DNA of 60,484 nt from a virus. Lineage: Duplodnaviria; Caudoviricetes. Both the position numbers and the translations under genes were made by a program. How positions within the stretch are numbered: the stretch's first letter is position 1; every line of letters starts with the position of its first letter. The stretch lies in IMG/VR virus record IMGVR_UViG_3300032213_001151, positions 1 through 60,484 of that record. One strand, given 5' to 3'. The notes below the pieces were generated by a model. That model did no database searches. It was not told the origin of the DNA and saw only the letters and a program-made list of their open reading frames with translations. Shown here piece by piece: positions 1 to 60,484 of this stretch.

Positions 1-123
1 CCTTGCGTATCTCGTCACTTGTCTTGCCCTTTACGCCTACAGTCACGTGACCCCCACAGCGTCTGTCAGCAGGGCTGTAGCGTGAGTCAATTATCTTCTC
101 AGCCTGCACGAACAAGTCATAGA
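1..123. repeat. Terminal direct repeat, copy 1 (circular assembly overlap)
   Basis: Identical to 60362-60484; the amidoligase ORF reads in frame through the join. Confidence 0.95.
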
Positions 124-475
124 CCTTGTTGCGCCATTTGCCTTCGGGCAGCAGGGGTAAGATGTGGGTCACTGCCTCGTATCCGCATGAGCCGTCACGT
201 TCAAACCCGCAGAACAGTGGGTATTCCTTCACAGCACCTCTGTGTAGTACGTTCTTCTCAACTTCAAAACCGATTGTGAACTTGCTCTCATGCACACCAC
301 CCTCGGTAAGGATTGCGTGCCTGCGCTGCATGGGCTTCAATCCAATCACGTCAACCGTGTAAGGGGTCTTGCTGTGATTCAATGGGCTTGGCTTGCCGTG
401 ATAACTCTGTACAGTGCCTCTTCTTTCGTCACCCGTGTTAGTGTAGGCGATTCCGTTTAAAAAATTGTTCGTCAT
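1..475 (-). CDS. Putative amidoligase (COOH-NH2 ligase, Amidoligase_2-like), 5' part; continues to 59823 across the join (~337 aa)
   Basis: Manual translation from ATG 475: MTNNFLNG...FTIGFEVE...FERDGSCGYEAVT...YDLFVQAEK, which joins ORF 59823..60476. Confidence 0.75.
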   Translation of the reverse strand, partial: MTNNFLNGIAYTNTGDERRGTVQSYHGKPSPLNHSKTPYTVDVIGLKPMQRRHAILTEGGVHESKFTIGFEVEKNVLHRGAVKEYPLFCGFERDGSCGYEAVTHILPLLPEGKWRNKVYDLFVQAEKIIDSRYSPADRRCGGHVTVGVKGKTSDEIRK

Positions 476-502
476 AGTGGTAGTGTTGGTTTAGTATGGG
501 TA

Positions 503-518
503 GTGTCCTCAAAGACAC
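503..518. repeat. 16-bp palindrome site 1 (GTGTCCTCAAAGACAC)
   Basis: Intergenic; extended by GGGTA/TACCC arms (498-523). Confidence 0.95.
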
Positions 519-536
519 TACCCGTGTTGTTGTTGG

Positions 537-1205
537 TTAATTTTCACCCCCTCTGTTGGCAAGTGCTGCCTTCAGGAACTCAAGTGCAAAGTTTAGCTCT
601 TCGTCACTGTTCTGCGTGGTCACAGTGCCGTTGGTGTCTACCCTCACAGCTACGTTTCTGCCAAGGTCCAAGTCAGCAGCCTTGAAAGACATTATGAAGA
701 CTGTCGCAGTGCGCACTTCCACTTCGGGGGTGCTGTCTTCGCCTTCCTCATTTCCACTGCCTTCACCCTCACCTTTTCCGCTGCCTGCGGTCTCTGCTGC
801 TGCACGTGCAAACTTCAATAAGCCCTCAAGTGTTCTGTTAGGCTCTTGCCCTTCTGCCTCTGCCTCGTCACACTTGGTGTTGAACAAGTTAATTGTTTCT
901 TGTGGCAGTTTGCCTGCCTTCAACACTTTGTAGAAGTAGCTTTTTTGCCACCCGAAAACTTTCTTTCCAAACTCTTCGTTGGACCAAGAAACGCCTTCCT
1001 CGCGGAAAACTGCCTTGCCTTCGTCAGACGAAAACCATTCGTGTGCCTTCAACACCAACTTGCTCAAGGCAATTGTGTTGGTGAACTTGCTCTTTTGTGC
1101 GTTGGTGAGAGTGCGCTGCACCTTGCGAATCTCTGTGATGTTCAAACCTGCCTTCACTTGTGGTAAGGCTAAAAGTGCGGTCTCGATTGTTAGTAACTGT
1201 GTCAT
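537..1205 (-). CDS. Early protein with possible helix-turn-helix and an acidic Gly-rich linker
   Basis: 222-aa ORF; segment WSNEEFGKKVFGWQKSYFYKVLK looks HTH-like; follows a TAnnTTTG element. Confidence 0.7.
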   Translation of the reverse strand: MTQLLTIETALLALPQVKAGLNITEIRKVQRTLTNAQKSKFTNTIALSKLVLKAHEWFSSDEGKAVFREEGVSWSNEEFGKKVFGWQKSYFYKVLKAGKLPQETINLFNTKCDEAEAEGQEPNRTLEGLLKFARAAAETAGSGKGEGEGSGNEEGEDSTPEVEVRTATVFIMSFKAADLDLGRNVAVRVDTNGTVTTQNSDEELNFALEFLKAALANRGGEN

Positions 1206-1257: not shown

Positions 1258-1265
1258 CAAACATA
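1258..1265 (-). promoter_or_regulatory. Bacteroidota-type -7 promoter element (TATGTTTG)
   Basis: Matches TAnnTTTG upstream of the first - strand gene; context resembles 53561, 57404 and 58542. Confidence 0.65.
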
Positions 1266-2398: not shown

Positions 2399-4018
2399 AT
2401 GATAGACAATGGCATGGGGTATTCCCCGAAGGACCTTCAGTTTGGAGAAGAGGGTCGTAAGAAACTAATCAGTGGTATTTCAAAAATTGCAACTGCAGTC
2501 AAGAGCACATTAGGACCGAGGGGTAACACTGTGTTGATTGAGTCGCCATCACACACGAGCAGTATAACTGTGACCAAGGATGGTGTGACGGTAGCCAAGT
2601 CAATTGACTTGATGGACCCTGTAGAGAACCTTGCGGTAAGGATGATGAAGGAGGCAGCAGACAAGACTGCCAACTCAGCGGGTGATGGTACGACAACTGC
2701 CATTGTGTTGACTGAGGCTATTGTCAAAGCGGGTGACGAGTTGATGGACAGTGACACGAACAGGACGCTTGTGTTGCGAGAGATTGTGGAGATGGGCAAC
2801 AAGATAGTGGAGAAGCTTGCGCAAAAGAACGTGAAGCTAACCGAGCACACCTTGTTGGATGTAGCTAAAATCTCTGCGAACAATGACAAGACTATTGGTG
2901 AGACCATTGCCAAGGTATACAAAGAGATTGGTGAGAATGGTATTGTGACAGTAGAGAAGTCGCAGACCACTGAGACATATGCTGAGTCAACGCACGGGTT
3001 CAAGGTACAGAGAGGGTACTACTCACCGCTGTTCATCAATGACCAAAAGAAGGACGAGTGCATCTATGAGGATGTGATGGTGCTAATCAGTGACGCTGAG
3101 ATACACAACTTGCTGCAGATTGAGCCGGTGCTGAAACCAATTATCCAAGAGGGTAAGAAGCTTCTGATTATTGCTCCGTGCTCAGTGAACGTGGTGAACA
3201 CATTGGCTGCGAATGTGGTGAAGAACAACCTGAAGGTATGTGCGATTGAGCCACCATCATTCGGGTATAAGAAGCATGAGCTGATGCAAGACATTGCCTT
3301 GGCTGTGGGTGCTAAGTATTTCTCAGAGAAGACAGGTGACGACTTGAGCCTAATCTCGTATGCTGACCTTGGTCATGCTGCAAAGATTATCATTGACTCG
3401 AAGAGCACTGTGATAATCAACTCTGAGTTCAGAACAGACTTTGAGGAGATTGACAACAGGGTTGCTCAGTTGTGGGAGGCGCACAAGGCTGCCAACAAGA
3501 AGCATGAGAAGGAGTTCATCCTCTCAAGGATAGCATCACTGACAGGTGGCGTTGGTGTCATCTACGTAGGTGGTACAACTGACATAGAGCAGAAGGAGCT
3601 GTATGACCGTGTCGATGACGCAGTGTGTGCAGTACGTTCAGCATTAGAGGAGGGCATCCTTCCCGGTGCAGGCAAAGCGTTATTCGAGGAGGCACTTGCT
3701 ATTGTTGGCGAGGCTAATGACAGCAAGGAGAGAACTATTGCCAAGAAGATTCTTCACACCGCACTTCAGATACCGCTGATGCAGATACTGCTGAACGCAG
3801 GCATGAACGGGCATGAGGTGTATGCTGATGCGAATATGCGTCAGTCAGGTCGTGGGTACAATGTGGTGACAGGGACCTATGGTGACCTGATTGAGATGGG
3901 TGTGATTGACCCGGTGAAGGTGACAAGGTCAGCCCTGCAGAATGCAATCAGTGTGGCAACAACAATCCTATCAACCAACGCCATCATCACAATGGCGAGA
4001 ACATACGATACAAAATGA
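2399..4018 (+). CDS. groEL: Chaperonin GroEL (Cpn60)
   Basis: TLGPRG, TKDGVTVA, AGDGTTTA, EEGILPGAG and GVIDPVKVTR motifs. Confidence 0.98.
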   Translation: MIDNGMGYSPKDLQFGEEGRKKLISGISKIATAVKSTLGPRGNTVLIESPSHTSSITVTKDGVTVAKSIDLMDPVENLAVRMMKEAADKTANSAGDGTTTAIVLTEAIVKAGDELMDSDTNRTLVLREIVEMGNKIVEKLAQKNVKLTEHTLLDVAKISANNDKTIGETIAKVYKEIGENGIVTVEKSQTTETYAESTHGFKVQRGYYSPLFINDQKKDECIYEDVMVLISDAEIHNLLQIEPVLKPIIQEGKKLLIIAPCSVNVVNTLAANVVKNNLKVCAIEPPSFGYKKHELMQDIALAVGAKYFSEKTGDDLSLISYADLGHAAKIIIDSKSTVIINSEFRTDFEEIDNRVAQLWEAHKAANKKHEKEFILSRIASLTGGVGVIYVGGTTDIEQKELYDRVDDAVCAVRSALEEGILPGAGKALFEEALAIVGEANDSKERTIAKKILHTALQIPLMQILLNAGMNGHEVYADANMRQSGRGYNVVTGTYGDLIEMGVIDPVKVTRSALQNAISVATTILSTNAIITMARTYDTK

Positions 4019-5226: not shown

Positions 5227-5574
5227 ATGAAGGATGCCTGCTACAAAAAAGTGAAAGCACAGTACAATATATTCCCATCTGCACGTGCATCACAGGCTAT
5301 TGCCAAGTGTCGCAAGGAATCGGGCAGTGTTCGCAAGGGTGAGGCAGGCACATCACTGAAAAGATGGCAGAATGAGAAGTGGGTTGACACCAAATCAGGC
5401 AAACCATGTGGTGCAGGTGGCAAGAATGAGTACTGTCGTCCATCAAAGAGAGTGTCTTCAAAGACACCCGTGACGAAATCGGAGTTGAGTTCGTCAAAGC
5501 TTGCAGCAAAGAAAGCAGAGAAGTCAAGAGTGGGTATGGGAAATCGTGTCTCAAACATTAATAAAAAAAAATAG
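5227..5574 (+). CDS. Small basic protein (SLKRWQNEKWVD...CG...YCRP)
   Basis: 115-aa ORF in operon context. Confidence 0.8.
   Translation: MKDACYKKVKAQYNIFPSARASQAIAKCRKESGSVRKGEAGTSLKRWQNEKWVDTKSGKPCGAGGKNEYCRPSKRVSSKTPVTKSELSSSKLAAKKAEKSRVGMGNRVSNINKKK
5452..5467. repeat. 16-bp palindrome site 3 (GTGTCTTCAAAGACAC)
   Basis: Inside CDS, read as VSSKT. Confidence 0.95.
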
Positions 5575-13384: not shown

Positions 13385-15608
13385 TCTTTACTATGTAGTT
13401 GAGGACTATATTCCTAAGAAAACAATTTCGACTAAGAACCGCAATCGTAGTTGGGTATATGGATATGACCCACAGCACGATGTTGTCGTTATATCTAAGA
13501 CAGGTCAGATTGGAGATGTTCTGAATATCAGGGGTCTTCACATAGCATTACCTGCTGCTCCGGAAAAGTGTCTTCAAAGACACACTAAAGCATCTGAGCA
13601 ATATTGGGAAAGAGAAGAACTTCCTGTTCCTTTATCCAAAATCAATTCAATCTTTCAGTGGAATGAGATGCCCAATCAGTTTAAGAATAGTTGGGTGGAC
13701 TACATTGAGGAACAGTTTGATAGAAGAGAGCAAGGGCTATGGTTCATGAACAATGGACAGCCAACATATATCACGGGAGCACACTATATGTATCTGCAGT
13801 GGTCCAAGATTGATGTAGGATACCCTGACTTCAGAGAGGCAAATAGAATACTGTACATCTTTTGGGAAGCCTGTAAAGCTGACATTCGTTCTTTCGGAAT
13901 GATATATCTTAAGATAAGGCGTTCAGGATTCTCCTTTATGTCATCATCTGAATGCGTAAACATTGCAACCCTTGCAAGAGATGCTCGCATAGGTATATTG
14001 TCTAAGACGGGAGCAGACGCTAAGAAGATGTTCACCGACAAGGTGGTCCCTATCAGTACGAACCTTCCATTCTTTTTCAAGCCTGTGCAAGATGGTATGG
14101 ATAAGCCAAAGACAGAGTTGGCATATCGTGTACCTGCTTCTAAGATTACCAAGAAGAATATGTCTGAGACATCGAATGATGAGATGGATGGCTTGGATAC
14201 CACAATCGATTGGAAGAATACAGAGGACAACTCATATGATGGTGAGAAGCTATTGTTCTTAGCACATGATGAAAGTGGGAAGTGGGTGAAGCCCGTAAAC
14301 ATCCTGAACAATTGGCGTGTTACTAAAACGTGTCTGCGTCTTGGTAGCAAGATTATTGGTAAGTGCATGATGGGTTCAACATCAAACGCATTGTCAAAGG
14401 GTGGTGACAACTTCAAGAAGATGTATGAGGACTCACGTGTATCCTCAAGAAATGCCAACGGTCAAACAAAGTCAGGTCTATACGCACTGTTCATTCCTAT
14501 GGAGTGGAACATGGAAGGCTTTATAGATAGGTATGGTATGCCTGTGCTACGTAAGCCGACTCAGCCTGTTCGTGGAGTTGACGACAATTGGATTATGAAT
14601 GGGGCTATTGACTATTGGGAAGCTGAAGTAGAATCTCTGAAGTCTGATGCAGATGCATTGAACGAATTCTATCGTCAGTTCCCAAGAACAGAGTCCCATG
14701 CTTTCAGAGATGAGAGCAAAGCTGCACTATTCAATCTAACAAAGATTTATCAGCAGATAGATTATAATGACTCGTTGATTCAAGAGCACCACATGACTCG
14801 TGGTTCTTTCCATTGGAAAGATGGGATAAAGGACTCAAAGGTTATATGGTCCCCTGACTCACGTGGCAGGTTCTTGGTGTCTTGGATACCCGGAAAGAAT
14901 TATCAAAACAGAGTTATTGACCGCAATGGAATGAAGTTTCCCGGCAATGACCACATGGGCGCATTCGGTTGTGACTCATATGACATATCAGGTGTTGTTG
15001 TTGGCAAAGGTTCCAATGGTGCATTGCATGGATTGACAGGATACCATGTTGATGAGGGACCTATAAATACTTTCTTCCTTGAATACATTGCTCGTCCACA
15101 GACTGCAGAGATATTCTTTGAAGAAGTGTTGATGGCAATAGCATTTTATGGAATGCCTATCTTGGTGGAGAACAACAAGCCAAGACTTTTGTATCATTTA
15201 AAGAATAGAGGATACAGAGGGTTCTGTCTCAATCGTCCTGACAAGCCATACACCAAGCTGTCTAAGACTGAACGTGAGCTTGGTGGTATACCAAACTCAT
15301 CAGAAGATGTTAAGCAGGCACACGCAGCAGCGATTGAGTCTTACATTGAGAAGCATATCGGTCTTGACTTAGAAGGAAAGTATAGGGACCCTGAAGAGAT
15401 GGGCACTATGCCATTCGTGCGCACATTGGAAGATTGGGCTAAATTTGACATAAACAATCGTACAATGTTTGACGCATCTATCAGTTCGGGGTTGGCAATT
15501 ATGGCAACTCAAAAACATCTGTATCAACCTGAGAAAACACAATCAAAAATTAGCATTAACTTTGCTACATATAACAATAAGGGGACTATAAGCCAAATCA
15601 ATAGATGA
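13320..15608 (+). CDS. terL: Terminase large subunit (start uncertain)
   Basis: KIRRSGFS Walker A, LAHDESGKW Walker B, GST, GCDSYD nuclease motif. Confidence 0.9.
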   Translation: MTMEMESLNQNKGLQNEGQENSLYYVVEDYIPKKTISTKNRNRSWVYGYDPQHDVVVISKTGQIGDVLNIRGLHIALPAAPEKCLQRHTKASEQYWEREELPVPLSKINSIFQWNEMPNQFKNSWVDYIEEQFDRREQGLWFMNNGQPTYITGAHYMYLQWSKIDVGYPDFREANRILYIFWEACKADIRSFGMIYLKIRRSGFSFMSSSECVNIATLARDARIGILSKTGADAKKMFTDKVVPISTNLPFFFKPVQDGMDKPKTELAYRVPASKITKKNMSETSNDEMDGLDTTIDWKNTEDNSYDGEKLLFLAHDESGKWVKPVNILNNWRVTKTCLRLGSKIIGKCMMGSTSNALSKGGDNFKKMYEDSRVSSRNANGQTKSGLYALFIPMEWNMEGFIDRYGMPVLRKPTQPVRGVDDNWIMNGAIDYWEAEVESLKSDADALNEFYRQFPRTESHAFRDESKAALFNLTKIYQQIDYNDSLIQEHHMTRGSFHWKDGIKDSKVIWSPDSRGRFLVSWIPGKNYQNRVIDRNGMKFPGNDHMGAFGCDSYDISGVVVGKGSNGALHGLTGYHVDEGPINTFFLEYIARPQTAEIFFEEVLMAIAFYGMPILVENNKPRLLYHLKNRGYRGFCLNRPDKPYTKLSKTERELGGIPNSSEDVKQAHAAAIESYIEKHIGLDLEGKYRDPEEMGTMPFVRTLEDWAKFDINNRTMFDASISSGLAIMATQKHLYQPEKTQSKISINFATYNNKGTISQINR
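13568..13583. repeat. 16-bp palindrome site 4 (GTGTCTTCAAAGACAC)
   Basis: Inside terL, read as CLQRH. Confidence 0.95.
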
Positions 15609-19205: not shown

Positions 19206-20654
19206 ATGGCAGTTCTATCAACTCCCGGATTTCAGTTGCAGCCCTCAGCAGAGCAGGTTGCCTTGTCCACCAACTACATTACCAACTTCAACTTCTTGAA
19301 TCAGTATCTTCCTGATACCTATGAGAAAGAATTTGAACGCTATGGTAACCGCACCGTAGCATCCTTCCTTCGTATGGTAGGTGCTGAAATGCCTTCTAAC
19401 TCTGACCAAATCAAATGGGCAGAACAAGGTCGTCTTCACACCAAGTACGTGGATGTTACCACTACTGTTTTGACCAACGCAGACAGTGCCACTTTCACAG
19501 TCAATGACTTGAACGTATCAGGCATCGCAATTCGTCCCGGTCAGACCGTTATGATTACCCCTAACGTAGCAGGTCCTACTCAAAACAAAGGTATCGTTAC
19601 CGCAGTTAACACTACGGCTGATACTTTTGATGTAGCCTTCTACGAAGCAAGTGGTATCACCAACGCTTCAGCAGCAAACAAATTCACCGTATTCGTTTAC
19701 GGTTCTGAATTCAAAAAAGGTACTTCAGGAATGGTTGGCTCTTTGGAAGCAGAAGATGAAATCTTCAGCAACTCTCCAATCATCATCAAAGACAAGTATG
19801 CCGTATCAGGTTCTGACATGGCTCAGATTGGATGGGTTGAAGTAACCACCGAGAATGGTGCTACAGGTTACTTGTGGTACTTGAAGTCAGAGCACGAGAC
19901 TCGTCTTCGTTTCGAAGATTACCTTGAGACCGCTATGTTGGAAGCTGTTCCTGCAGAAACAGGTTCAGGTGTTGCTAACGCATCACTCAACCCAACCTAT
20001 GGTAACAAAGGTTCTGAGGGCGTATTCTACGTGGTTAACTCACGTGGTAACGTGTGGGGTGCAGGTAACCCAACTACCTTGGCTGACTTTGATACTATCG
20101 TTACTCGTCTTGACAAGCAGGGTGCTATCGAAGAGAATGTTCTTTTCGTTAACCGTGACTTCTCTTTCGACATTGACGATATGTTGGCTACCTTGAACGG
20201 CTTCAGCTCTTCAGGTTCTGCAAACGCAGCGTCATTCGGTTTGTTCGACAACGATACTGACATGGCTTTGAATCTTGGCTTCAGCGGATTCCGCAGAGGT
20301 TATGACTTCTACAAGTCTGATTGGAAGTATTTGAACGACCCAACTTTGCGTGGTGGTTTGACCCTGTCTACTTCAGGTGCTACTACCGCAAACGTAATTA
20401 CCGGTATGCTTGTTCCTGCAGGTTCAACTACTGTGTATGACCAAATCCTTGGTAAAAATGCGAAGCGTCCTTTCCTTCACGTGCGTTACCGTGCGTCTGA
20501 AACTGAGGACCGCAGATACAAAACTTGGATTACAGGTTCTGCAGGTGGTGCTCAGACAAGCGACCTTGATGCAATGGAAGTTCACTTCCTCTCTGAACGT
20601 GCCGTGTGCACATTGGGAGCTAACAACTTCTTCTTGTTCCGCTACGGAGCATAA
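19206..20654 (+). CDS. Major capsid protein
   Basis: 482 aa; gene position, codon bias typical of high expression, downstream terminator. Confidence 0.85.
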   Translation: MAVLSTPGFQLQPSAEQVALSTNYITNFNFLNQYLPDTYEKEFERYGNRTVASFLRMVGAEMPSNSDQIKWAEQGRLHTKYVDVTTTVLTNADSATFTVNDLNVSGIAIRPGQTVMITPNVAGPTQNKGIVTAVNTTADTFDVAFYEASGITNASAANKFTVFVYGSEFKKGTSGMVGSLEAEDEIFSNSPIIIKDKYAVSGSDMAQIGWVEVTTENGATGYLWYLKSEHETRLRFEDYLETAMLEAVPAETGSGVANASLNPTYGNKGSEGVFYVVNSRGNVWGAGNPTTLADFDTIVTRLDKQGAIEENVLFVNRDFSFDIDDMLATLNGFSSSGSANAASFGLFDNDTDMALNLGFSGFRRGYDFYKSDWKYLNDPTLRGGLTLSTSGATTANVITGMLVPAGSTTVYDQILGKNAKRPFLHVRYRASETEDRRYKTWITGSAGGAQTSDLDAMEVHFLSERAVCTLGANNFFLFRYGA

Positions 20655-20671: not shown

Positions 20672-20703
20672 GGGGAGTGTCTTCAAAGACACTCCCCTAT
20701 TTT
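20672..20703 (+). terminator. Terminator hairpin built on palindrome site 5 (20677-20692)
   Basis: GGGGA-GTGTCTTCAAAGACAC-TCCCC then TATTTT. Confidence 0.85.
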
Positions 20704-30607: not shown

Positions 30608-31018
30608 ATGGTATTCAGAATTGAGCCAATAAAAGAAACCGATTACGATGACTTTCTCGTAGGATGGTGGGAATCATGGGGGTGGGAGCCACCACACAGA
30701 GATTTCCTTCCTGATAATGGGACGGGTGGAGTTTGTGTCTTTGAAGACACTACTCCTATTTGTGCGGGATTTCTTTATACCACCAACAGTGGTGTAGCTT
30801 GGGTCGATTGGGTAGTGTCAAGTAAAGAGTACAGAAAGAAGCCACAACGCCAACAGGCAATTGGCTTACTTGTTGAGACTCTTACAAACATTGCAAAGAG
30901 AACCGGACATAAATACACTTATGCCCTGATAAAGCATAGAGGTCTTATTGAGACATATAAATCTCTTGGCTACATCGAGGGTGATAAGTACACAACAGAA
31001 ATGATAAAAGTATTTTAA
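30608..31018 (+). CDS. GNAT-fold acetyltransferase-like protein
   Basis: VVSSKEYRKK...YKSLGY pattern; TATCTTTG at 30594-30601. Confidence 0.7.
   Translation: MVFRIEPIKETDYDDFLVGWWESWGWEPPHRDFLPDNGTGGVCVFEDTTPICAGFLYTTNSGVAWVDWVVSSKEYRKKPQRQQAIGLLVETLTNIAKRTGHKYTYALIKHRGLIETYKSLGYIEGDKYTTEMIKVF
30735..30750. repeat. 16-bp palindrome site 6 (GTGTCTTTGAAGACAC)
   Basis: Inside CDS, read as VFEDT. Confidence 0.95.
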
Positions 31019-44433: not shown

Positions 44434-44457
44434 GTGAGTGTCTTTGAGGACACTCAC
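44434..44457. terminator. Hairpin at the convergence of both transcription units, built on palindrome site 8 (44438-44453)
   Basis: GTGA-GTGTCTTTGAGGACAC-TCAC; T-run follows on the - strand. Confidence 0.75.
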
Positions 44458-55802: not shown

Positions 55803-56072
55803 TTAGTTGTTCTTCTTTAGGTAGTCGAGGAATGCTTCAGCCATAACTTCAGGACTCAGGTAGGTCTCGTACAGTTGGTGGGTTGCCAACAGTAGAATCT
55901 CGTTGTCGGTTAGCTTCTCCTGAATTAAATCTCCAAGCTTGCTTAGCTTCTTGTCTTCACCATCAGATAGGAATGCTTGAATGACTTCGAATACTTTTTT
56001 CTCCATGTCTTCTTTGTGGCATCCGAATGCTTTGATTGTTTCTTTTGCGGTGTGGTTTAATTGTAATTCCAT
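55803..56072 (-). CDS. Hypothetical protein
   Basis: 89-aa ORF. Confidence 0.7.
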   Translation of the reverse strand: MELQLNHTAKETIKAFGCHKEDMEKKVFEVIQAFLSDGEDKKLSKLGDLIQEKLTDNEILLLATHQLYETYLSPEVMAEAFLDYLKKNN

Positions 56073-56092
56073 TTTGTTATTTGTTTAAGGGT

Positions 56093-56136
56093 TGGCAGGC
56101 GTGGGAGGAATCGAACCCCCCAATAACCATTCGCCT
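56093..56136 (-). ncRNA. tRNA-like minihelix (44 nt) ending GCCA
   Basis: AGGCG-AATGGTTAT-TGGGGGG-TTCGATT-CCTCCCA-CGCCT-G-CCA. Confidence 0.65.
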
Positions 56137-56137
56137 T

Positions 56138-56153
56138 GTGTCTTTGAAGACAC
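56138..56153. repeat. 16-bp palindrome site 12 (GTGTCTTTGAAGACAC)
   Basis: Between the GATase-GGCT stop and the minihelix. Confidence 0.95.
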
Positions 56154-56155
56154 TG

Positions 56156-57250
56156 TTACAGTAGGTTGTCTACATCATTCTGAGTATACCACTCGTTGCA
56201 TCCAACACAGCAGTAGTTCCCGAACCCGTCATGCTCAAGGTCTCTGTAGCATGAAGTGCAGTATGGTGTGTCAACTATCTCCTCGTCACACTCTTCCTCT
56301 ATGTCAGCAGGATAGTTGTCAAACTTGTCGAATGAACTGAAGTCAAGTTGCTTGTATGTGCTTGACGCAGTTGGCTCGAATGGGTGTGGGCGATATGGCT
56401 TCTGCTCGAAAGACTCATGCAGCGTATCAAAACTACTCACTCGCTTGGTTGGGTTGAAGTATATCCAAGCATTGACTACGTTGCCCCTTGCTGTCACGAT
56501 TGGAATCTTCTTACGGCAATACCAATTGGGGTGTCCCTCAAGTTGGTCTAACTTGGCAAGCACTGTGTCACTCACCTTGAACAAGTCAACCTTGACATTG
56601 TGCCCCACTCCCTTCTGTTCTATCATGTATGGTATGCCTTCAACGAGCATGGGATACTTGTCTTCTGTTTTGCCTGAGCCAATGTATCTTGAGTCGGTAA
56701 GGTATCTGTAGTAGTTGTTGTTGCCCTTCTTCAGTGTGCCATACACAGCGACAAGATTGTTCTGCAACACGTTGTCCTTTGAGTACCACACACCATCCTT
56801 GAAAGTCCAAAGGTCACGGTTGTATAGTTGGAATGTGCGGGTGCGCACGTTGATAGTGATGAACCTTACAAGTCTGTTCTTCTCCAAGGTATCCTTCCAC
56901 TTGTGCCTTGGCACTGAGTCCAATGACTCAGCTAATACCTTTGAGTCGCACGTGTTGTTGTCACCAAGCCCATGAATAGTACCGTTCATCATCAGGTACT
57001 CGTGACTGTTTGCACCACACCTGAATGGGTGTGTGTTTGACTTACCGACCTTGCCTACTGTGGCGTATCGGAAGTGTGCAATGAAAGGACGGTCAGTGTC
57101 GAGCACCTTCCACTGCTTTGATGTGTGATAGCTCACCTCAAATGTGTCGAGCCAAACTACACCTAACCCGTGTGGGTTGATGCGTGATGAGTTCTTGAGA
57201 ACCTCTTTAGGAATCTCAATGTTGCGTTGCTTTACGATTATGATACACAT
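56156..57250 (-). CDS. Class II glutamine amidotransferase fused to gamma-glutamylcyclotransferase and a Zn ribbon
   Basis: Cys2, NPHGLG, AHFRYAT, NTHPF, NG; VAVYGTLKKG...LDQLEG; CTSC/CVGC. Confidence 0.85.
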   Translation of the reverse strand: MCIIIVKQRNIEIPKEVLKNSSRINPHGLGVVWLDTFEVSYHTSKQWKVLDTDRPFIAHFRYATVGKVGKSNTHPFRCGANSHEYLMMNGTIHGLGDNNTCDSKVLAESLDSVPRHKWKDTLEKNRLVRFITINVRTRTFQLYNRDLWTFKDGVWYSKDNVLQNNLVAVYGTLKKGNNNYYRYLTDSRYIGSGKTEDKYPMLVEGIPYMIEQKGVGHNVKVDLFKVSDTVLAKLDQLEGHPNWYCRKKIPIVTARGNVVNAWIYFNPTKRVSSFDTLHESFEQKPYRPHPFEPTASSTYKQLDFSSFDKFDNYPADIEEECDEEIVDTPYCTSCYRDLEHDGFGNYCCVGCNEWYTQNDVDNLL

Positions 57251-57272: not shown

Positions 57273-57288
57273 GTGTCTTTGAAGACAC
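57273..57288. repeat. 16-bp palindrome site 13 (GTGTCTTTGAAGACAC)
   Basis: Between the tRNA-like CCA end and the GATase start. Confidence 0.95.
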
Positions 57289-57298
57289 AGAACCCGAT

Positions 57299-57372
57299 TG
57301 GCAGTCAGGGCAGGATTCGAACCTACACAATAGGGCATCGCCCATAGCGTTTACCAATTTCGCCACCTGACT
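57299..57372 (-). tRNA. Atypical tRNA-like RNA (74 nt), isotype undetermined
   Basis: AGTCAGG/CCTGACT acceptor, GCGAAATTGGTAAACGC D arm, GTAGG-TTCGAAT-CCTGC T arm, G-CCA; short aberrant anticodon region. Confidence 0.7.
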
Positions 57373-57403: not shown

Positions 57404-57435
57404 CAAAGGTAATACATATTGTGAACATCACCAAA
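57404..57435 (-). promoter_or_regulatory. Promoter TTTG-N20-TACCTTTG
   Basis: Full -33/-7 consensus upstream of the tRNA-like RNA. Confidence 0.8.
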
Positions 57436-58513: not shown

Positions 58514-58541
58514 ATTGTTTGTTGTTTGTTTGTTTCGGGTA

Positions 58542-58573
58542 CAAAGGTAGTACATAGTTTGTATATATGCAAA
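58542..58573 (-). promoter_or_regulatory. Promoter TTTG-N20-TACCTTTG
   Basis: Full -33/-7 consensus. Confidence 0.8.
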
Positions 58574-58783
58574 TTATTTTTCAACTTTTTTTTCATCGCT
58601 GTGAATCCTTACTGCGAGGACGGTTACGTTCTTTGCTGACACCTGACCCCACCCCGCTGAACCTTTGCGTATGTAGAACAGTCTGCCATCATGGCTAAGG
58701 CTTGCCCACTGCTCATATAGATGCAGTGGGAGCCTTGCTATTGGCTTGTCTATCCTTATCAGGTACACGTTTGTCTTTATCAT
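58574..58783 (-). CDS. Hypothetical protein
   Basis: 69 aa, coupled to the upstream gene. Confidence 0.6.
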   Translation of the reverse strand: MIKTNVYLIRIDKPIARLPLHLYEQWASLSHDGRLFYIRKGSAGWGQVSAKNVTVLAVRIHSDEKKVEK

Positions 58784-59061
58784 CTGCCACCCCCCTGCAA
58801 TAAGGTCTTGAACCCATTGTACACGTTGCGTTTGTACGCCTGACTTTGGTAGTCAAATTTGTTCGACATCAGTATGCTCGTGATGCTGCAAAATCTTATC
58901 TCAATTTGATGCAGCACCTCTTCGAAGGTCTTGCCGTCCATGAGATTCTTAATCACCTCATCACGTGTGCTCACGATAGGGTTGTCGAATGTGCCGTTGG
59001 CTTTTGCGTTGATGTGCGCATCAGCAATGGCTTTTACTTGTTTTGAAATGCGTGTTGTCAT
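58780..59061 (-). CDS. Hypothetical protein
   Basis: 93 aa, directly after hammerhead A. Confidence 0.7.
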   Translation of the reverse strand: MTTRISKQVKAIADAHINAKANGTFDNPIVSTRDEVIKNLMDGKTFEEVLHQIEIRFCSITSILMSNKFDYQSQAYKRNVYNGFKTLLQGGGR

Positions 59062-59086
59062 ATCTGTTTTTTGTTATTGGTTGTTT

Positions 59087-59135
59087 GTGTTTCGTCCTTT
59101 CGGACTCATCAGCCTGAGCACTCACTCAGGGACAC
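59087..59135 (-). ncRNA. Type III hammerhead ribozyme A
   Basis: GUGUC^CCUGAG-UGAGUG-CUCAGG-CUGAUGA-GUCC-GAAA-GGAC-GAA-ACAC. Confidence 0.95.
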
Positions 59136-59141
59136 GGGGCA

Positions 59142-59157
59142 GTGTCTTTGAAGACAC
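59142..59157. repeat. 16-bp palindrome site 14 (GTGTCTTTGAAGACAC)
   Basis: Apex of a GGGGUG...UGCCCC hairpin abutting hammerhead A. Confidence 0.95.
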
Positions 59158-59183
59158 CACCCCTACTCACTACCACATGAGTA

Positions 59184-59501
59184 TTATCTTTCAGGGAACA
59201 CGTGTGCCCATATTGAGTTGTCACTTACCCACTCATCAGCAGGAACGCGTGGTGCAAGCCAATTCAGTGCGTCAATTATCACCTGACTTGTTGTCGGGTC
59301 ACCCTCCCAATCGTTCATGTAGGTCTTGTCCTCAGACAGTTCGTCCCATATGTAGTTGTTCAGGTCGCAGTCATTGAGATTGCGTTGGTAGTACGTGGTG
59401 ATGTAGTGTTCACCGTTGTGGTGTAGGCTCGCTACTCCACCGTCTTCGGTAATGATGTCCAATGACTCATCAACTTGGCTTTGGATTACTCTGTATTTCA
59501 T
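59184..59501 (-). CDS. Acidic hypothetical protein
   Basis: 105 aa between the hammerheads. Confidence 0.7.
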   Translation of the reverse strand: MKYRVIQSQVDESLDIITEDGGVASLHHNGEHYITTYYQRNLNDCDLNNYIWDELSEDKTYMNDWEGDPTTSQVIIDALNWLAPRVPADEWVSDNSIWAHVFPER

Positions 59502-59701
59502 GCTGTTAGGTATGGTGTTGGGTTAATGTTGTAGGTCTTGCATAGGTTAACGATAACAGATGCTTGTTGTGTGTAGATGACAGCGTCAAACCTTTCGGCA
59601 GCCACTTCTATCCATTTTTGTGCGGTCTCATAGGTGTTGAACATCTTGATGTGAATCGTGTCCTCGTCTTGGTCAACGCAGGCGGTCCAATGTGTTGTCA
59701 T
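59498..59701 (-). CDS. Hypothetical protein
   Basis: 67 aa between the hammerheads. Confidence 0.7.
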   Translation of the reverse strand: MTTHWTACVDQDEDTIHIKMFNTYETAQKWIEVAAERFDAVIYTQQASVIVNLCKTYNINPTPYLTA

Positions 59702-59732
59702 ATTTGTGTGTTGTTTGTTGGTTTAGTCGGTT

Positions 59733-59783
59733 GCTGTTTCGTCCTTTTGGACTCGTCAGGGACAGTGCTCACTGTCCGACAGC
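59733..59783 (-). ncRNA. Type III hammerhead ribozyme B
   Basis: GCUGUC^GGACAG-UGAGCA-CUGUCC-CUGACGA-GUCC-AAAA-GGAC-GAA-ACAGC. Confidence 0.95.
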
Positions 59784-59791
59784 GGGGGGAA

Positions 59792-59807
59792 GTGTCCTTG
59801 AAGACAC
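59792..59807. repeat. 16-bp palindrome site 15 (GTGTCCTTGAAGACAC)
   Basis: Apex of a G/C-rich hairpin abutting hammerhead B. Confidence 0.95.
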
Positions 59808-59822
59808 CCCCACCCCCTTGGT

Positions 59823-60484
59823 TTAAAATGGTGTTTCTCTGTCGTGGTTGTAGTGCCCCACCACTCGACCCCCCGTTACCTGCACTGTGTGCATCTCAGG
59901 GTGTCTGAAGTTCGGGTCAAGGAAGTGCGCCACCTCTTCGTCAATTTTCCCGTCCATTATGAACTTGCGATAGTGGCGTGCCTTCTGTAGCTTCTCTTCA
60001 GTCTTGGCTACATCACCCCCGTACATCGATAGAACTATAGGTCTGATGTGGGCAAGGAACTTCTCGTGTGTTACACCTGACACGTTGAATGCGAAGTCAA
60101 GCATGGCATAGAATAGCTCGTATCTGCGCATGGTTTGCTTCACTGACTCAAACTTGCTTGGGATACGGAACTCAACCACATACTCATTGTAGCCCACCTG
60201 CTTTAGAAGTGCCATTTTGTACCTGCTGCCACCTCTGTTGTTCGGTCCGTCAAAGTGGCTTCTCTCGGTCTCAGGCTGCATACGCAAGTTCCCGTTGCAG
60301 TACCCGTTTGAGATGCGACTCTCGTACAGGGCAAGTAGAATCCCACTCAGCGGACGCAAAGCCTTGCGTATCTCGTCACTTGTCTTGCCCTTTACGCCTA
60401 CAGTCACGTGACCCCCACAGCGTCTGTCAGCAGGGCTGTAGCGTGAGTCAATTATCTTCTCAGCCTGCACGAACAAGTCATAGA
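59823..60484 (-). CDS. Putative amidoligase, 3' part (begins at 475)
   Basis: CGGHV, SRY and VVEFR motifs of the COOH-NH2 ligase fold. Confidence 0.75.
   Translation of the reverse strand, partial: YDLFVQAEKIIDSRYSPADRRCGGHVTVGVKGKTSDEIRKALRPLSGILLALYESRISNGYCNGNLRMQPETERSHFDGPNNRGGSRYKMALLKQVGYNEYVVEFRIPSKFESVKQTMRRYELFYAMLDFAFNVSGVTHEKFLAHIRPIVLSMYGGDVAKTEEKLQKARHYRKFIMDGKIDEEVAHFLDPNFRHPEMHTVQVTGGRVVGHYNHDRETPF
60362..60484. repeat. Terminal direct repeat, copy 2
   Basis: Identical to 1-123. Confidence 0.95.

Follow-up and report, generated by a model that had tools for sequence, protein, structure and literature searches.

Hairpin-fused type III hammerhead ribozymes as candidate intercistronic self-processing modules in the early genes of a tailed phage

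The window analysed here is the whole 60,484-nucleotide (nt) virus record IMGVR_UViG_3300032213_001151 (Duplodnaviria; Caudoviricetes), the minus strand of which carries, close to its high-numbered end, two units in which a stable hairpin is joined to a type III hammerhead ribozyme. We refer to these units as modules A and B. They stand among small genes of the early arm, and the order of the region is a gene for 222 amino acids (aa), a hairpin, a gene for ~330 aa, module A, open reading frames (ORFs) of 67 and 105 aa, module B, and ORFs of 93 and 69 aa (Table 1). The only minus-strand copies of a promoter-like TAnnTTTG box in the early arm lie at 1265, 58549 and 57411, and because none lies between 1265 and 58549, this series of genes, including both ribozymes, appears to form a single transcription unit of ~3 kb.

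Table 1. Coordinates and properties of the features of the window (bp, base pairs; positions count from the first letter of the record).
Feature	Position	Strand	Description
Complete virus record			60,484 bp; 123-bp terminal repeat; 42% G+C
TAnnTTTG box	1258..1265	-	nearest box upstream of both ribozymes
Hairpin-only junction	498..523	-	16-mer hairpin, 22-nt leader, ATG at 475; without ribozyme; -19.3 kcal/mol, z -4.90
~330-aa gene upstream of module A	59823..60476 (3' part) + 2..475	-	stop codon 59825-59823
Hairpin A	59784..59816	-	14 bp, one bulge; 16-mer 59792-59807; -24.0 kcal/mol, z -3.06, 1/200 shuffles as good
Hammerhead A, type III	59733..59783	-	RF00008 match 59785..59731, 41.6 bits; stem III 5 bp
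Leader A	59702..59732	-	31 nt, A/C-rich, without Shine-Dalgarno-like motif
67-aa ORF	59498..59701	-	first gene of the 647-nt segment between the predicted cuts; no family match
105-aa ORF	59184..59501	-	ATG overlaps the 67-aa stop (ATGA); no family match; 3 homologues found
Hairpin B	59136..59163	-	12 bp; 16-mer 59142-59157; -21.2 kcal/mol, z -4.94, 0/200 shuffles as good
Hammerhead B, type III	59087..59135	-	RF00008 match 59138..59084, 41.4 bits; stem III 4 bp
Leader B	59062..59086	-	25 nt (24 by model-based count), A-rich, without Shine-Dalgarno-like motif
93-aa ORF	58780..59061	-	downstream of hammerhead B

Both ribozymes aligned with the Rfam hammerhead family RF00008 over a complete type III core, comprising CUGANGA, GAA, the A-U pair that closes stem III, the G-C pair that closes stem II and GUC as the NUH cleavage triplet. 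Hammerhead A runs from the 5' strand of stem III through GUC, a 6-bp stem I (loop UGAGCA), CUGACGA, a 4-bp stem II (loop AAAA) and GAAA to the 3' strand of stem III; the corresponding parts of hammerhead B are GUC, a stem I with the loop UGAGUG, CUGAUGA and a stem II with the loop GAAA. The C17 residue falls at 59778 in A and at 59131 in B, and the predicted cuts lie at 59778/59777 and 59131/59130. In the Rfam alignments, as in the minimum-energy folds of the entire modules (101 nt for A and 105 nt for B), the core is surrounded by three helices, of which stems I and II end in loops and stem III is open; the folds of the modules consist of the hairpin followed by the hammerhead. An earlier reading of the same letters (the original prediction) had proposed two perfect type III cores with GUC, these two cut positions, stems I and III that differ in sequence and yet remain paired, and a UGAGYR loop I in both copies; the RF00008 alignments and direct reading bear out all of it.

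When the entire window was searched, A and B reached E values of 1.1e-5 and 1.3e-5 and were the only non-tRNA Rfam matches at E <= 0.01. A scan of the window at the Rfam gathering scores returned only a tRNA, and the hammerheads emerge with E-value thresholds. Their shortfall in score accompanies a loop II of 4 nt, where the Rfam consensus has 8 positions, and routine annotation will miss ribozymes that score below the cut-off in this way. A family-specific model, the seed alignment of which included both A and B, was also run with the filters off and found only A (76.4 bits) and B (77.9 bits) in the window, the next best match scoring 13.4 bits.

Each hairpin terminates on the base that precedes stem III, so that 0 nt separate it from the ribozyme, as had been expected for A and B alike, and hairpin A begins 6 nt past the stop codon of the ~330-aa gene. 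The lengths of the leaders, 31 nt in A and 25 nt in B, are likewise close to the ~25 to 30 nt from ribozyme to ATG in the original prediction. Both hairpins are built on a 16-nt sequence, here called the 16-mer. Tolerating one mismatch, we counted 15 copies of it in the window where 0.01 would be expected, and 0 of 100 shuffles reached this number; at 13 of these 15 sites there is no ribozyme. Intrinsic termination at hairpins A and B was considered and rejected: what follows each hairpin is the stem III strand (GCUGUC or GUGUC) and no T-run, and neither is among the four terminator-like sites of the window.

The 93-aa protein encoded downstream of hammerhead B has three relatives in viral contigs, two of which (L060 and L061) carry ribozymes of their own. 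Rfam detected two hammerheads in L060 and three in L061, each of the five preceded by a 16-mer hairpin, and the family-specific model added a fourth in L061. A ribozyme is kept in the window, L060 and L061 both after the ~330-aa gene and before the 93-aa gene, with stems of different sequence, and the proposal of a repeated unit in the early, minus-strand arm is thereby upheld as one of conserved type III hammerheads whose two sites persist in two relatives. Four of the six 16-mers in L060 and two of the six in L061 stand without a ribozyme; one ribozyme of L061 has its upstream 16-mer in the opposite orientation, and another 16-mer of that contig is a perfect palindrome. The L061 homologue of the 67-aa gene likewise follows a hairpin and a hammerhead but is positioned differently among the genes: in L061 (4279-4940) the 105-aa and 67-aa genes come after the 93-aa gene, and in the window (59184-59701) they precede it. 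The small genes appear to be shuffled between hairpin/ribozyme modules. In the third relative, L062, the junction orthologous to hammerhead B holds no ribozyme before the 93-aa gene. A hairpin-like element at this junction (3912-3957, plus strand) gives a weak match (20.4 bits, E 1.1e-4) to the tRNA-like end of tmRNA, and its folding energy is no better than that of shuffles (z -0.31). Among annotated phage records, no match to the ribozyme region was found, and module B (105 nt) matched only a 27-nt core stretch in Xanthomonas phage RiverRider.

A 24-nt pattern derived from the two window cores matched 57 viral-contig stretches. A model built from 25 copies then gave 100 matches in 57 sources, and the best 88 of these (>= 46.9 bits) reduced to 79 distinct copies at 44 loci. 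Among the 25 related copies, 98.4% of the 375 cells of the alignment that should be paired were paired, and 10 of the 15 base pairs change on both sides (6/6 in stem I and 3/5 in stem III). The covariation score was 0.692, compared with 0.177 in shuffles (0/500 as high) and at most 0.130 when the partners were slid. A chance motif was ruled out by this covariation, by the conservation in relatives and by the lack of further matches in the window with the filters off. The cleavage triplet in the 79 copies was GUC in 60, GUA in 15 and GUU in 4. Copies tend to cluster: nine of ten other whole phage records hold 1 to 5 of them, MW202828.1 holding 0, and in the eight records with more than one copy all lie on one strand within ~6 kb.

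The geometry of the modules recurs across these copies. The upstream hairpin abuts stem III with a gap of exactly 0 nt in 66 of the 79 and of at most 2 nt in 76, compared with a gap of 0 in 131 of 2000 random 40-nt windows. The median folding energy is -15.5 kcal/mol for the 40 nt upstream of the ribozyme, -6.1 for the same stretch moved a further 60 nt upstream and -4.4 for random stretches. Stem III has 4 to 6 bp in 75/79, and the predicted 3' tail left by cleavage measures 5 to 7 nt in 72/78. An upstream ORF is present in 75/79 copies, its stop codon a median of 32 nt before stem III, and an ORF starting with ATG follows in 77/79, at a median distance from stem III of 24 nt (quartiles 21 and 29; at most 51 nt in 69/77), the leader consisting of 52% A and 7% G. 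Downstream ORFs have a median length of 93 aa, 55/67 being shorter than 150 aa, and are mostly of unknown function; nine PHROG families were matched, each by a single member, and one of these families is an anti-restriction protein.

What varies is the sequence of the hairpin. It is the 16-mer in 26 of the 79 copies, a GTGTC..GACAC variant in 8 and an unrelated sequence in 45, many of these with common stable tetraloops. Because 45 of the 79 hairpins are unrelated in sequence, the partner of the ribozyme, judged from these copies, is a stable RNA hairpin of any sequence and not the 16-mer, which is the preferred hairpin sequence of this lineage and no ribozyme-specific partner. The original prediction of a fixed coupling between the ribozyme and a DNA-type motif consequently fails, given that only 26 of the 79 hairpins carry the 16-mer, that 13 of the window's 16-mers lack a ribozyme and that one orthologous junction has the ribozyme in L061 and not in the window or L060. 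Its proposed check, the adjacency of motif and hammerhead in relatives, showed a 16-mer hairpin at all five Rfam-detected copies of L060 and L061 and at 26 of the 79 copies of the subfamily.

The same 24-nt pattern also matched at least 120 stretches of bacterial genome contigs. The matches listed contain 111 distinct copies, 108 of them scorable, and it is to these that the bacterial counts refer. The record titles among the matches listed overwhelmingly name groups of Patescibacteria (Saccharibacteria, Paceibacterota and others). The loci (L068-L147) often hold several copies per 8 kb, up to six at E <= 1e-8, and stem III has 4 to 6 bp in 89 of the 108 scored copies. Four bacterial-contig copies exceed the Rfam cut-off, with 48.8 to 52.1 bits. 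The motif YTCTTTNA (e.g. GTTCTTTGAA), which we take to resemble an antitermination box, lies within 25 nt downstream in 33/111 of the bacterial copies and in 0/57 of the phage set. An rRNA scan of eight bacterial loci found none, and a literature search, from which most subscription journals and supplements were excluded, found no paper on hammerheads in Patescibacteria.

We give a probability of about 0.6 to the interpretation that each unit is an intercistronic self-processing module within a polycistronic early transcript of the phage, the host of which is probably a bacterium of the Bacteroidota. In such a module, a stop codon would be followed by a stable hairpin, a type III hammerhead, an A-rich and unstructured leader of ~25 to 30 nt and the next ATG. 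The hairpin would be the first element to fold and the ribozyme the next, its short stem III (4 to 5 bp in the window) lying against the hairpin, on which it could stack. Cleavage would then take place after C17. The hammerhead reaction is known to yield an upstream product with a 2',3'-cyclic phosphate and a downstream product with a 5'-OH. The upstream mRNA would thus end in the hairpin and a tail of 5 to 6 nt (A and B; 5 to 7 nt across the family) with the cyclic phosphate, which should make it a poor substrate for 3' exonucleases, and the shortness of stem III would allow the two products to separate. The 5'-OH of the downstream mRNA would be paired into stem I of the compact ribozyme, with the open leader and the start codon just behind it. 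In this way flanking genes would be uncoupled in decay and in folding with no need for a host RNase, and the two cuts in the window would free a bicistronic mRNA of 647 nt (59777..59131) with the 67-aa and 105-aa ORFs. What the sequences show is a set of conserved, covarying motifs in a fixed geometry. Cleavage in the cell, ends of the chemistry known for the hammerhead reaction, and effects on stability and translation are what we infer; end protection and mutual insulation of neighbouring genes would follow. The geometry, with a hairpin that touches a stem III of 4 to 6 bp and a tail of 5 to 7 nt, also suits the hairpin-protected 3' end and the 5'-OH mRNA of the original prediction, which would be its expected products.

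Several observations weigh against the self-processing module. The copies compared were collected with a pattern taken from the window itself and with a model derived from it, and they describe one subfamily and not all phage hammerheads. Both window copies stay under the Rfam gathering score of 48.5 (41.6 and 41.4 bits), copy B folded alone as 55 nt lacks stem III in its minimum-energy fold, and in the subfamily the minimum-energy fold of hairpin plus ribozyme lacks stem III in 57/79 copies, a count made with imperfect position indexing. Hairpins also stand between genes without any ribozyme and hence have a role of their own. The junction before the ~330-aa gene carries hairpin, ribozyme and leader in L061 and only the same hairpin with a similar leader in L060 and in the window (498-523). 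Because of this difference, the ribozyme looks like a discrete insertion or deletion, and an individual junction can do without it; none at all is present in the GenBank record MW202828.1, a distant relative. Finally, the bacterial copies keep the hairpin less strictly (gap 0 in 47/108 and at most 2 nt in 80/108), and they are loosely spaced from an ATG, the median distance being 57 nt. Since the hairpin nonetheless accompanies these bacterial copies, where ATG spacing is loose, hairpin fusion is by this comparison a trait of the ribozyme subfamily, and the close spacing from the start codon belongs to the phage setting.

A bolder form of the self-processing module, which we regard as tentative and on balance doubtful, would make the hairpin-hammerhead-leader cassette a distinct natural RNA device, widespread in phages, with hairpin and ribozyme as one structural unit, and would supply the missing role of prokaryotic hammerheads. 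Taken jointly, its parts are that the hairpin would stack on a deliberately short stem III, that the freed tail of 5 to 7 nt would fold back upstream of the hairpin into a blunt cap bearing the cyclic phosphate and render the cut irreversible, and that the ribozyme would cap the next mRNA. If true, it would mean host-independent punctuation and end-protection of each cistron. Pairing of the tail with bases upstream of the hairpin left at most one unpaired 3' nt in 40/77 of the predicted 5' products, compared with 32.3 +/- 3.5 (maximum 39) in 20 permutations of the tails. This signal is weak and suggestive only: it was not seen for copy B and arose for copy A only with a distant partner.

The same geometry can be explained from the side of the ribozyme. 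The hairpin could serve the hammerhead itself by stacking on the 4- to 6-bp stem III and by shielding the ribozyme from pairing with the upstream coding sequence, which would let a weak stem III form in the course of transcription, and the cut might then have some other purpose. This explanation is compatible with the self-processing module, and as the account of the hairpin we consider it rather unlikely. It would make sense of the zero gap, of a stem III so short that the energy model loses it in most copies, and of the hairpins that accompany bacterial copies despite loose ATG spacing; it does not account for the same hairpins at ribozyme-free junctions (498-523 in the window, and others), and their position close behind stop codons points to a role for the upstream mRNA.

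Less likely still, the cut might act as a firewall against polarity: with the upstream RNA no longer attached to the polymerase, Rho or a 5'-to-3' decay process loaded upstream would run off at the cut, and the small downstream genes would be transcribed and kept whatever the level of upstream translation. The location of the ribozymes in a long unit of many small genes, in one clustered region per genome, would suit this idea, as would YTCTTTNA near bacterial copies, where the likeness to an antitermination box is our presumption. The idea is pure conjecture in that nothing in the window points to Rho; the absence of YTCTTTNA from the phage set speaks against it, and it leaves the hairpin and the fixed distance to the ATG unexplained.

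It is improbable, too, that the modules are boundaries of mobile or shuffled cassettes, that is, recombination points, or that the ribozyme is a selfish insertion of little benefit to the phage. Ribozyme presence does differ at an orthologous junction (L061 versus the window and L060), the modules that enclose the 67-aa and 105-aa genes are not the same in L061 as in the window, and copy number ranges from 0 to 5 among records. Covarying stems and an intact core, however, indicate selection on the RNA fold, the tight distances to hairpin and ATG point to RNA function, and not DNA homology, as the object of selection, and no flanking direct repeats were found except the 16-mer.

It is very improbable that the ribozyme or an RNA ligase joins the ends of the 647-nt segment to make a circular mRNA, in the way of retrozymes and viroid-like RNAs: the two cuts would yield the 5'-OH and 2',3'-cyclic phosphate needed for ligation, and the main text of PMC3088659 raises the possibility, but its authors report there that they could not detect circular or spliced products, the stems III differ such that a joined chimera would keep only three pairs, the segment varies in length and content among relatives, and many genomes have single or odd-numbered ribozymes. 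Nor does the segment look like a retrozyme or viroid-like repeat, in which like ribozymes lie in repeats and their halves rebuild one: stems I and III differ and no long direct repeat flanks it.

Among known systems, the synthetic insulator RiboJ resembles the self-processing module in that a hammerhead removes upstream RNA to give a defined 5' end and an undisturbed ribosome-binding region; it differs in being man-made, in carrying its extra hairpin downstream of the ribozyme and in being used behind promoters rather than between genes. Intrinsic terminators and hairpins that stabilise 3' ends share the GC-rich hairpin right after the stop codon, whereas hairpins A and B have no T-run and the 3' end here would arise by predicted RNA cleavage, not by termination. 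Core and stem II are identical in sequence to those of type III hammerheads from viroid-like and satellite RNAs, stem I is similar in length and loop I in size, and the 24-nt window pattern also matches four records of 322 to 457 nt (L016, L018, L023 and L056). In those small RNA replicons, however, the ribozyme resolves multimers, whereas here it would form part of an mRNA from a 60-kb DNA phage, with a hairpin on one side and a translated gene on the other. The hammerhead of the haloarchaeal viruses HF1/HF2 likewise occupies an early polycistronic transcript, 13 nt upstream of the start codon of a helicase, and the mapped 5' end of that transcript lies within 3 nt of the cleavage site (main text of PMC3088659); it is a single copy with a variant core containing an insertion, in an archaeal virus, and that text mentions no adjoining hairpin.

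The closest precedent is the study of Perreault et al. (2011; PMC3088659), the main text of which describes clusters of hammerheads in phages and prophages, placed on either side of one gene or of a short run of small, non-conserved genes, proposes that they process phage polycistronic RNA and reports cleavage of three clusters in vitro. Its ardA gene is echoed by the anti-restriction family matched by one downstream ORF of our set. Several close-set hammerheads that flank small non-conserved phage genes are thus common to both; all those described here are type III, have the gap-free upstream hairpin and lie ~24 nt from a start codon. The words "terminator" and "stem-loop" occur 0 times in that main text, as distinct from its supplements, and its two uses of "hairpin" concern ribozyme loops and another class of ribozyme. 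Two reviews (PMC6155905 and PMC6765202), in the passages that deal with bacterial and phage hammerheads, treat their biological role as an open question, and a 2026 paper (PMC13725137) offers a eukaryotic parallel, reporting ribozyme-dependent initiation of translation in fungal and plant RNA viruses. A literature search, with supplements and most subscription journals outside it, found no description of a gap-free hairpin fusion or of a fixed leader length in phage hammerheads. The ribozyme class and its clustered phage setting are therefore already known, and the precise composite architecture of hairpin, hammerhead and leader was not found in print. This fixed architecture, in which the hairpin touches a short stem III and a leader of ~24 nt follows, allows specific predictions of how both products should end and how stable they should be. 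Related phages provide natural junctions with and without the ribozyme that can be used as controls, and the question of function is directly testable; the module might also be a ready-made natural part for separating the genes of an operon.

The genome around the modules is divided into two arms. The plus strand carries the genes from 2399 to 44430, including those for a GroEL-like chaperonin, structural proteins and a 3520-aa protein, and the minus strand those from 44454 to the end of the record and on across the terminal repeat into 2..1205, including a helicase and a primase/helicase. The ~330-aa gene upstream of module A was assembled from ORFs of 158 and 217 aa at the two ends of the record, which overlap through the 123-bp terminal repeat and both match one 324-aa frame of L061, and the repeat may represent an assembly overlap of a circular or permuted genome. 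TAnnTTTG boxes were found ahead of several genes. A 29-nt repeat, D7, whose two copies (1254-1282 and 58538-58566) are 90% alike, holds TTG and the box on the minus strand, a combination that presumably resembles the Bacteroidota type of promoter element. A Shine-Dalgarno-like 4-mer precedes only 2 of 44 genes, compared with 8.3% of random 15-mers, and the regions upstream of the 44 genes are 50% A. Because of the TAnnTTTG boxes and the near absence of Shine-Dalgarno motifs, set against the promoters and translation starts known from Bacteroidota, the host of the phage is probably a member of that phylum.

Besides the intergenic 16-mers, six copies lie inside long ORFs (1470, 5452, 13568, 30735, 37327 and 45623). 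Extended pairing of the flanks is lacking at most of them and present to some degree at 30735; relative to the gene, both orientations occur, and the reading frame differs, being frame 0 at 5452 and 37327 and another at 13568. That the exact 16-mer is kept in genes suggests sequence-specific recognition at the DNA or the RNA level. Hairpin promoters of the N4 type for a virion RNA polymerase were considered and set aside, given that PHROGs produced no polymerase match for the 3520-aa protein and that the 16-mer occurs on both strands and partly in genes. Two other 16-mer hairpins, at 20677-20692 (plus strand) and 44438-44453 (minus strand), have extended stems followed by T-runs. The first sits after a gene that ends at 20654 and the second between the convergent ends of both gene arms; they look like true terminators, the same hairpin core being used with and without a T-run.

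A further 16-mer hairpin, at 56138-56153, is directly followed by an element that resembles an acceptor/T-arm minihelix of tRNA (56082-56137, minus strand) and ends ~10 nt before an ATG at 56072. The element has a 7-nt UUCGAUU loop and a GCCA end, was not called by ARAGORN and gave an insignificant Rfam match (14.5 bits, E 2.4). It holds the slot that the hammerhead takes in other modules. The appearance of tRNA-like minihelices in this slot (56137..56082 here, and in L062 at the hammerhead B site) hints that the two might be interchangeable processing signals. For the sole tRNA gene of the window (57299-57372, minus strand; 44.8 bits with Rfam), ARAGORN gave the label 'tRNA-???' and a two-letter anticodon (at); the gene has the TAnnTTTG box at 57411 ahead of it and a 16-mer hairpin behind it at 57273-57288. 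A 364-aa protein encoded at 56156-57250 (minus strand) has a gamma-glutamyl cyclotransferase-like domain (Pfam GGACT, 1.1e-22) and also matches glutamine amidotransferases weakly; its gene is an auxiliary metabolic gene of the early arm.

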